IMG/VR virus record: IMGVR_UViG_2718218136_000007 | Span: 1-49,093 of that record | Direction: 5' to 3' (one strand) | DNA from: a virus | Taxonomy: Duplodnaviria > Heunggongvirae > Uroviricota > Caudoviricetes | DNA length: 49,093 nucleotides | In this document: positions 33,277-33,989 of the stretch, one piece after another | Position numbering within the stretch: position 1 is the first letter of the stretch | Layout: every line of letters starts with the position of its first letter | Notes under the pieces: model-generated | The model's database searches: none | Told to the model about the DNA's origin: nothing | Seen by the model: the letters and a program-made list of their open reading frames with translations, nothing else | Translations under genes and position numbers: made by a program

Positions 33277-33666
33277 TCAGGCGGCTGCACCCGCCGGTTT
33301 CTCATACTTACTGATAGTGATCTCGACCTTCCCTTTCGGGATAACCGGTCCCCACTCCACCAGCATTCTTTTCACCTGTCTGTCGTCTTCCCACACACCC
33401 GCGTGGGTCAACGCGTCAAACAGCGCCTTGTTATAGTTGTCCAGATCGCGGATCCGGTTATCCGGAGGAAACAACACGATCTCCACTGAAGCAGGTGCCG
33501 ACGTTGGTTTTGGCAGACGACGTAACTGCTCAACTATTGCTGCGCACGCCGCGCTCTGAAATTTTCGCCCCGCCGCGCTTATCAGGCTCTTACCAGCAAA
33601 TGCCCCTTTGTTGGGGTGTCGCCAGTACGTGTTCACGCTGGGCGGAAAAGGCAGGATCAGCTTCAT
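33277..33666 (-). CDS. rusA: Holliday junction resolvase RusA
   Basis: 129 aa; motifs DLDNYNKALFDALT and WEDDRQV match RusA catalytic region (compare E. coli RusA [25 protein letters not shown]). Confidence 0.8.
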   Translation of the reverse strand: MKLILPFPPSVNTYWRHPNKGAFAGKSLISAAGRKFQSAACAAIVEQLRRLPKPTSAPASVEIVLFPPDNRIRDLDNYNKALFDALTHAGVWEDDRQVKRMLVEWGPVIPKGKVEITISKYEKPAGAAA

Positions 33667-33989
33667 GCTTTCAGGCCTCTCTCATGTAACCAGTGGGTTG
33701 CACGCAGCCTTGCGTTTTCCTCACCGGCAAGCAGTGAGCGGATAATCCCGACCGCCTCGCTGTCGTCGTCCTTCACCGCGGTATGAAGCGTTATCCCCCG
33801 GGCCACGCCACGCTTTATCGTGATGACACCTTTTTTCTCCAGTGCGCGAAGATGCTCCACCGCTGCATTCACTGAACGGTATCCCAGCATGGTTGCCACC
33901 TCCTGATTGGTTGGCGGGAAGCCACGTTCTTTCTGGTAAGAAATCAGCATATCCAGCACCTGCTGCTGGCATTGAGTTAATGTCGTCAT
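33663..33989 (-). CDS. LexA DNA-binding-domain-like protein (winged HTH only, no S24 peptidase domain)
   Basis: 108 aa; LTQCQQQVLDMLISYQKERGFPPTNQEVATMLGYRSVNAAVEHLRALEKKGVI aligns by eye with the LexA N-terminus ([53 protein letters not shown]). Confidence 0.65.
   Translation of the reverse strand: MTTLTQCQQQVLDMLISYQKERGFPPTNQEVATMLGYRSVNAAVEHLRALEKKGVITIKRGVARGITLHTAVKDDDSEAVGIIRSLLAGEENARLRATHWLHERGLKA

Follow-up and report, generated by a model that had tools for sequence, protein, structure and literature searches.

The DNA analyzed here, hereafter called the window, is the 49,093-nucleotide IMG/VR virus record IMGVR_UViG_2718218136_000007 (Caudoviricetes), a lambdoid prophage. On its minus strand the window carries a gene (33663..33989) that encodes a LexA-type winged helix without the S24 autoprotease, followed by a conserved C-terminal tail. 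We refer to it as the LexA-DBD (DNA-binding domain) gene. The reading that we favor, tentatively and at a little short of even confidence, is that the product would be a LexA surrogate insensitive to RecA. It would dimerize through its tail and occupy SOS boxes once host LexA is gone, damping or resetting SOS-controlled functions of the host, the phage and rival prophages.

A LexA DNA-binding domain without an autoprotease

The initial annotation had claimed a 108-residue open reading frame (ORF) at 33663-33989, a LexA winged helix over roughly its N-terminal 70 residues and the lack of an S24 autoprotease domain, and all three points, down to the exact coordinates, were borne out. The start codon is the first ATG past an in-frame stop, and a Shine-Dalgarno sequence, GGGAG (33998..34002, minus strand), lies 8 nt 5' of it. 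The Pfam profile LexA_DNA_bind (PF01726) covers residues 1-65 with all 65 of its 65 model positions (E=2.9e-19, 69 bits; the cut-off is 23.7 bits), and a phmmer search of the PDB sequences returned E. coli LexA (1lea, 1jhh and 3jso) at about 1e-15. An AlphaFold2 model built from an input alignment of 22 sequences (predicted local distance difference test score, pLDDT, 83.7) gave a LexA-type winged helix-turn-helix (wHTH) over residues 1-69 (33783..33989, minus strand), with helices at residues 6-22, 28-35 and 40-52 and strands at 56-58 and 66-68. When this model was compared with the PDB by Foldseek, the best match was the LexA-DNA complex 3jso (E=1.2e-6, root mean square deviation (rmsd) 0.9 Å over 68 columns, 50% identity). 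The top 12 matches were LexA throughout, the best ones (3jso and 1lea) at rmsd values of 0.9-1.2 Å. Hence, profile, sequence and fold searches all support the LexA fold.

No Peptidase_S24 match was found in the 108-residue protein by Pfam profile search, and the chain stops at residue 108. The NCBIfam lexA equivalog TIGR00498 aligned at model positions 1-91 of 203 only, and its score of 70.8 was below the cut-off of 110.95. LexA repressor proper (TIGR00498; MEROPS S24) has a C-terminal S24 peptidase/dimerization domain with a Ser119-Lys156 dyad, and this domain is absent from the phage protein. A LexA-type winged helix without the S24 autoprotease is thus fully supported. A PADLOC search gave the protein no significant assignment to an anti-phage defense system, the sole hit being a CARF model matched marginally through the wHTH (E=3.6e-4, 18 bits).

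The DNA contacts of E. coli LexA helix III are made by Ser39, Asn41, Ala42, Glu44 and Glu45 (PMC3091678). The corresponding recognition helix of the phage protein, as placed by the AlphaFold2 model and the phmmer alignment, spans residues 40-52, VNAAVEHLRALEK (33834..33872, minus strand), with S39 just before it. Four of the five contact residues (S39, N41, A42 and E45) are kept and E44 is replaced by V. An alignment of the family showed no variation at S39, at N41 or in the wing motif R64-G65-I66. Position 44 varies freely, and conservation peaks at the residues with which LexA reads DNA.

A conserved C-terminal tail

Although right about the LexA domain and the missing S24 domain, the initial annotation had overlooked a conserved C-terminal two-helix tail and the wide existing annotation of the family. 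The tail (residues 70-108 plus the stop codon; 33663..33782, minus strand) was modeled by AlphaFold2 as a low-confidence linker at residues 71-75 and two helices, at residues 75-88 and 93-103. Its motif, EAvxxIRALLAGEExARxRAxxWLxxRG, is common to family members from the E. coli protein through alleles at ~40% identity, with A97 and L101 invariant in the family alignment, and the tail is conserved in E. coli, Klebsiella, Cronobacter and Kosakonia. Comparison with an allele of 84% protein identity gave ratios of nonsynonymous to synonymous substitution rates (dN/dS) of 0.085 overall, 0.078 for the DBD and 0.052 for the tail. Purifying selection acts on the gene, no less in the tail than in the DBD. 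The model suggests that the tail forms an amphipathic helical hairpin that may be a dimerization element standing in for the LexA C-terminal domain.

Alignments to LexA, both by hidden Markov model (HMM) and by phmmer, run past the hinge to residue 86 and place the sequence LLAGE of the tail opposite VAAGE of LexA. Residues A88-G89 of the E. coli allele lie opposite LexA A84-G85; variants found elsewhere in the family are TR, ER/EG, DD, AC, AE, AD, AN, VG, NG and SG, and the family therefore has no conserved Ala-Gly self-cleavage site of the kind found in LexA proper. A retained cleavage site that would make the protein a trans-cleavage substrate was considered and rejected, because AG varies within the family and falls in a predicted helix.

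Distribution and existing annotation

The LexA-DBD gene is present in 50 phage records at 94-100% nucleotide identity. The carriers include mEp460, SfV (orf42), SfII, SfIV, cdtI, Ayreon, Kati, 2H10, phi1720a-02 and Stx2a_1447/WGPS2, together with fifteen Stx2c phages and phiSTEC1575-Stx2k. Among 5426 complete E. coli genomes 2232 have the gene, at 2853 places, and 100% identical annotated copies are found in E. coli H10407 and others. RefSeq names the protein 'LexA family transcriptional regulator' or 'LexA family protein', and it matches phrog_362 ('transcriptional repressor') at E=1.5e-59, with residues 1-107 aligned to positions 1-105 of 106. The protein thus belongs, C-terminal tail included, to a family of enterobacterial phage proteins of 105-135 residues having LexA_DNA_bind only (PHROG 362), and the window gene shares the lambdoid nin-region location that characterizes this family. 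A 'LexA family, pfam01726' pham, present in 15 phages, also appears in a pangenome paper on Shiga toxin (Stx) phages, which does not discuss its function (PMC8136144).

Profile searches found the same architecture (105-135 residues, PF01726 only) in Escherichia, Shigella, Salmonella, Citrobacter and Cronobacter and also in Klebsiella (clusters of >1000 members), Enterobacter, Atlantibacter, Kosakonia and Hafnia. A single-protein scan of genome contigs returned only Shigella copies, one fragment and genuine lexA genes. The gene order (PerC)-Dam-X-RusA-(KilA-N, Rha/ANT or ORF6N/ANT)-DUF968-Q, where X is the LexA-DBD gene, is kept in Cronobacter, Salmonella, Citrobacter, Atlantibacter and Kosakonia, and the Dam protein at the upstream position comes from either of two unrelated Pfam families, PF05869 or PF02086. 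We also observed eight proteins of 140-350 residues (P0131, P0132, P0149, P0152, P0153, P0156, P0159 and P0163) having two tandem LexA_DNA_bind-like stretches each, an arrangement that may amount to two LexA heads joined covalently as a pseudo-dimer.

Databases already contain this sequence family and record its resemblance to LexA, and hence neither is a discovery. The conserved tail, the retained DNA-reading head, the place in the lytic operon and the phage-borne SOS boxes together define a very widespread uncharacterized regulator.

The SOS box of the window

Operators were scored with a position-specific scoring matrix (PSSM) made from 27 LexA operators of E. coli, which themselves score 12.8-28 bits with a median of 20. 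The initial annotation had proposed a search of the prophage for CTGT-N8-ACAG sites, and this search found four in the window versus 0.74 expected; when CTGT..ACAG spacings of 0-20 were tested, the enrichment was at 8 only. The sole strong SOS box, CACTGTTTATTTTTACAGTA (30050..30069), scored 23.1 bits and the second-best SOS-like site of the window scored 10.4 bits. The strong box lies at the 5' end of a gene for an N6_N4 DNA methyltransferase located 3' of Q (29025..30077, minus strand; PF01555, E=3.4e-42), where it forms codons 3-9 (N-T-V-K-I-N-S). The methylase box is identical in the Salmonella and Citrobacter phage phiNP alleles (~80% protein identity), whereas the next 57 nt have ~14 substitutions. 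In a more diverged methylase allele (L236:2890) the box is TACTGTAAAAATATCCAGTT, of the form CTGT-N8-CCAG, which is still a good SOS box. Because the box is kept while the adjoining 57 nt vary, its conservation argues for selection on the box as such. The methylase box is a candidate cis target of both host LexA and the LexA-DBD protein. No convincing sense promoter was found by eye at the box, and an antisense candidate, TCAACA-16-TATTTT, was weak (8/12). Between a putative tR' terminator 3' of Q and the boxed methyltransferase gene is a small ORF (30228-30431, minus strand; 67-75 residues) that has no Pfam match, is kept alongside the methylase in relatives and could be a controller protein.

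Genuine lexA loci (L206-L209) showed paired boxes in the PSSM scan. The autoregulatory box that marks LexA proper was not seen here, there being no site of at least 8 bits within 3 kb upstream of the LexA-DBD gene in the window.

SOS boxes in related phages

We scanned 80 IMG/VR loci chosen for having the LexA-DBD gene, each with 10 kb on either side, and took sites of at least 14 bits as strong. At least one such site was present in 46 of the 80 loci. The most frequent class was the box at the methylase 5' end (29 loci), followed, in 27 loci, by a perfect box within cI genes of the mEp460 type, in the stretch encoding the linker that joins the HTH and S24 domains. Five loci had an intergenic box just 5' of the KilA-N gene that follows rusA, and a few boxes preceded cargo genes. 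Two alleles of the cI gene, encoding KSNTVCKNS and KSNTVYKNS, both retain the box despite varying flanking codons. Examples of the cI box are at L003:5546-5565, within mEp460 cI (5082-5774, minus strand), and at L082:17347, within the cI-like gene of phiNP. A box inside cI is possibly an SOS-controlled internal promoter or a roadblock; the YmfK-type repressor of the window has no such box. The KilA-N/antirepressor-like box of these E. coli relatives, TACTGTATTTATGAACAGTG (L025:10789, L076, L079 and L080), is located ~85 bp 5' of the gene and ~764 nt downstream of the LexA-DBD start. The KilA-N gene of the window abuts rusA and lacks the box.

Boxes and gene were often found together. Every one of the 27 E. 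coli/Shigella phage records that include a boxed methylase also has the LexA-DBD gene. Among IMG/VR methylase-box loci with at least 7.5 kb of upstream sequence the gene was present in 27 of 31 (one of the 27 being an 84% allele and one a remnant); a shorter methylase-box locus, L179, has a family member at only 44% identity. For cI-box loci with at least 8 kb of downstream sequence the figure was 17 of 24, gene and box being 2.9-5.5 kb apart. As a matched control we took 48 loci having the same terminase (at least 99% identity) with 10 kb of upstream sequence. The LexA-DBD gene was seen in seven of these, which is a lower bound as copies may lie just off the locus, and 35 of the 48 lacked the gene, the methylase and any SOS box of at least 18 bits.

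Klebsiella prophages (L210:9385-10393) have a different arrangement, in which the LexA-DBD gene lacks Dam and RusA neighbors and an SOS-box/dinI context is kept. The box, TACTGTTTATTTATACAGTA (27.2 bits), overlaps a -10 element 20 bp before dinI, and is followed in order by dinI, a 96-residue ORF and the 130-residue LexA-DBD member, which begins ~600 bp downstream of the box. From this arrangement the Klebsiella gene evidently belongs to an SOS-controlled module beside DinI. DinI is a damper of the SOS response, and the dinI-orf-LexA-DBD cluster looks like an SOS-induced operon joining two potential SOS dampers.

The 'bully' Stx phage phi1720a-02 (KF030445.1) has the LexA-DBD gene and phiNP (OR565852.1) has two strong SOS boxes. 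In the 'bully phage' preprint suppression of phiNP induction by phi1720a-02 is credited to Cro, and neither the LexA-DBD gene nor its pairing with the phiNP boxes is mentioned.

Position in the delayed-early operon

The initial annotation had assigned the gene to a nin-like region, in agreement with the gene order found on the minus strand: an HTH_36 replication protein (35130-35948), a PerC-family protein (34639-35133), Dam (phage N-6-adenine methyltransferase, 33986..34672), LexA-DBD, RusA resolvase (33277..33666), a KilA-N protein (32448-33257), DUF968/HNH (31451-32446) and the Q antiterminator (PF03589, 30685-31479). These are followed 3' of Q by the small ORF, the N6_N4 DNA methyltransferase, lysis genes and structural genes. 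The LexA-DBD gene overlaps both neighbors by 4 bp. Its ATG overlaps the TGA stop codon of Dam in the sequence ATGA (33986-33989), and the RusA start overlaps its own stop (33663-33666). No sigma-70-like promoter was found just 5' of the gene on its strand. Given the stop/start overlaps and the lack of a promoter-like site of its own, the default inference is that the gene is co-transcribed and translationally coupled within the delayed-early (nin) operon. Such a position in a lytic operon implies that the protein would appear once the repressor has been lost, or at an early stage of infection, and not in the quiescent lysogen. The repressor gene, of the YmfK/e14 type with an S24 domain (37893..38567, plus strand; Peptidase_S24, E=1.5e-26; the homologue in H10407 is named ymfK), is divergent from the early-right operon that holds the LexA-DBD gene.

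The prophage itself is defective, because an IS66 element splits the tape-measure gene. The element (HTH_Tnp_1, TnpB_IS66 and DDE_Tnp_IS66 ORFs; 12296-14911, plus strand) lies inside the tail tape-measure gene (14832-16418 / 11132-12334, minus strand) so that the prophage can probably no longer build tails. A second insertion sequence (DDE_Tnp_1) is at 41245-42453 in the early-left region. The window also has as cargo a full-length Dsr1 (SIR2-type) anti-phage defense gene (43860-47687, minus strand; PADLOC Dsr1, 2733 bits) that adjoins the integrase gene (47870-49093, minus strand).

A proposed mechanism and the evidence against it

The initial annotation had suggested that the protein could bind SOS boxes of host or prophage and modulate induction, which on sequence grounds is plausible. 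In favor of this are the four retained contact residues, the one strong box of this prophage, the joint occurrence of the gene and phage-borne boxes in relatives, and the SOS-box promoter ahead of the Klebsiella cluster. In the mechanism that we propose, we infer DNA specificity, dimerization, repression and a biological benefit as follows. The winged helix would still read the CTGT half-site of SOS boxes, and a flexible linker would join it to the two-helix hairpin, which would dimerize the protein instead of the LexA C-terminal domain. Synthesis from the delayed-early operon would occur after loss of the prophage repressor, when host LexA has already been cleaved, or early in infection. RecA* would be unable to inactivate the protein because it has no S24 domain and no conserved cleavage site, and a protein that RecA* cannot cleave would re-occupy SOS boxes. 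If the phage protein does read SOS boxes, then its sole universal targets would be those of the host SOS regulon. Boxes within phage genes would be added where present, here at the methylase 5' end and in relatives in cI, before an antirepressor-like gene and in the dinI operon. The expected outcome is that the SOS response and LexA-controlled functions of the host and of competing prophages would be damped or reset during lytic development.

Several points weigh against this proposal. At the level of the protein, V stands in place of E44, and some branches of the family do not keep E45, which has become L in Klebsiella, D in Cronobacter and G in one Citrobacter allele, with losses also in some Salmonella. 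The SOS-box scores come from a matrix of our own making and are not curated. Many carriers have no strong box: none was present within 10 kb in eight full 20-kb E. coli loci, in all Cronobacter and Citrobacter loci and in one Atlantibacter locus, and these box-free carriers had neither a recurrent weaker site nor a conserved CTGK-N8-MCAG site. Because many carriers lack a box, there is no obligatory cis target. Conversely, phiNP lacks the LexA-DBD gene and still has both the boxed methylase and the boxed cI-like gene, and thus host LexA alone suffices to explain the boxes. Moreover, the association of gene with boxes is inseparable from physical linkage and the shared ancestry of modules 3-7 kb apart. 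In the literature we found no functional study of the enterobacterial protein described here, and the tectiviral precedent points elsewhere. Gp6 of phage GIL01 is 44% identical to the DBD of its host LexA, yet it uses a non-SOS palindrome and activates transcription (PMC6182141).

Alternative explanations

That precedent underlies the competing explanation that survives best, which we consider rather unlikely. In it the protein would be a phage-specific transcription factor with an operator diverged from the SOS box. It would activate or repress a small number of phage promoters, perhaps just one, such as those of late, antirepressor or methylase genes, and would spare the host SOS regulon. 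Gp6, likewise a LexA-DBD-only protein, has GaCACAnnTGTGaC as its binding site and is an activator of the late promoter P3 (PMC6182141). A private operator would accord with the variation at recognition-helix position 44 and, in several branches, at position 45, with the strictly conserved synteny of the gene in the regulatory nin region, where antirepressor-like genes and Q come soon after it, and with the PHROG label, which is the generic one of a transcriptional repressor. However, four of the five residues with which LexA contacts DNA persist in the E. coli allele, as does 50% identity to the LexA DBD, no other palindrome common to the carriers was found, and within the window CTGT..ACAG is enriched at the SOS spacing of 8 only. 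Late transcription in lambdoid phages is, moreover, already under the control of Q, which is present in the window.

The gene is flanked by RusA and by a Dam protein of either of two unrelated Pfam families, with stop/start overlaps, an arrangement that would suit a non-transcriptional role in which the winged helix serves as a DNA- or protein-binding accessory of Dam, RusA or DUF968/HNH, for example, by targeting them to phage DNA. Weak wHTH matches to DnaD_N and to replication-initiator PHROGs point the same way but are insignificant (E 0.01-0.15) next to the LexA match. As the Klebsiella gene has no Dam or RusA neighbors and yet has the SOS box and dinI, and as conservation is strongest in the LexA DNA-reading residues, we regard an accessory role as improbable.

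On their own, N-terminal fragments of LexA have a much lower affinity for operators than the dimer has, and the phage protein lacks the LexA dimerization domain. It might therefore be an SOS antagonist or decoy, a weakly dimerizing or monomeric DBD that would compete with LexA at operators or titrate a LexA partner, raising SOS or antirepressor expression and promoting induction. Against this, purifying selection on the tail argues for an added function such as dimerization, expression from the lytic operon would come when induction is already past, and the Klebsiella partner is DinI, which damps the SOS response rather than inducing it. We consider an antagonist more improbable still.

Finally, a decaying remnant of a captured lexA with no present function is strongly disfavored and very improbable, for despite the many truncated or frameshifted copies in databases and Shigella (L204 and L124), HMM homology to LexA that continues through the hinge and the AG cleavage-site region, and the defective prophage, dN/dS against the 84% allele is 0.085 with the tail as constrained as the DBD, and viable phages such as mEp460 and SfV, along with ten or more enterobacterial genera, have intact genes of 105-135 residues.

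Significance

If the LexA-surrogate reading is true and the protein binds SOS boxes, ~40% of the E. coli strains sequenced so far would have, in addition to LexA, a similar repressor that DNA damage could not inactivate, and the same would apply to many Shigella, Salmonella and Klebsiella strains and to Shiga-toxin phages. The length and strength of the SOS response after prophage induction would be altered, with possible effects on mutagenesis, persistence, Shiga-toxin output, colicin release and competition among co-resident prophages. If the protein instead has its own operator, as does GIL01 gp6, the gene would be a captured LexA head re-used as a phage regulator, which is ordinary but undescribed for lambdoid phages. 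As the gene is small and simple to delete and assay, the question is directly testable.

A broader version of the surrogate proposal, which we think unlikely when taken as a whole, is that lambdoid enterobacterial prophages, including those encoding Stx2a and Stx2c, make an uncleavable LexA surrogate in lytic growth that would re-repress SOS boxes after loss of host LexA. Their private boxes (in cI, at the methylase 5' end, before antirepressor-like genes and before dinI) would be read in turn by the surrogate and by host LexA. Such a network would time late gene and toxin expression and silence LexA-controlled rivals (antirepressors of other prophages, colicins and SOS toxins).

Comparison with known systems

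The phage protein shares with host LexA (1lea, 1jhh and 3jso; TIGR00498) the N-terminal winged helix (50% identity, 0.9 Å), residues S39, N41, A42 and E45 and the wing R64-G65-I66. It differs in lacking the S24 Ser-Lys autoprotease/dimerization domain and hence in being expected not to respond to RecA*, in having a 39-residue two-helix tail and a V at position 44, and in being encoded by a phage-borne gene in a lytic operon that in the window has no autoregulatory SOS boxes upstream. To judge from its sequence, it would work like LexA proper without being a member.

The nearest functional analogues of the proposed mechanism are the LexA N-terminal fragment and the LexA(Ind-) proteins G85D and S119A (1jhf and 1jhh), in which DNA binding is beyond the reach of RecA*. 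The former arises by natural cleavage of the host protein and the latter were made from it by mutation in the laboratory, whereas the phage gene evolves independently, has its own conserved tail and does not conserve AG. The natural N-terminal fragment binds weakly and is degraded.

Other small phage proteins alter host SOS output in the lysis-lysogeny decision. GIL01 gp7 binds LexA (PMC6182141), and AriS of Listeria phages is a phage-encoded modulator of the SOS circuit (PMC9043618). Gp7, the phage DinI homologues and AriS act by protein contact on LexA or RecA, whereas the LexA-DBD protein would act on DNA operators.

The only characterized phage LexA-DBD homologue is gp6 of the betatectivirus GIL01, described as a 'phage-encoded LexA homologue' that is essentially a LexA DBD, is encoded in the early operon and is made after inactivation of host LexA (PMC6182141). 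Gp6 has Lys38 in its recognition helix, and its palindrome overlaps the -35 element of the late promoter that it activates (PMC6182141). In the window no gp6-like palindrome was identified at a late promoter, and late control there is by Q (PF03589). Both proteins are phage encoded and have essentially only the LexA DBD. However, going by its published description (PMC6182141), gp6 belongs to a tectivirus of Gram-positive bacteria and has no helical tail, its chain stopping soon after the wing, whereas the protein of the window has its 39-residue tail and a lambdoid context. The enterobacterial family is thus set apart from gp6 by a conserved tail, a different host, a lambdoid nin location under Q late control, the retention of more of the host LexA reading head and probably a different target.

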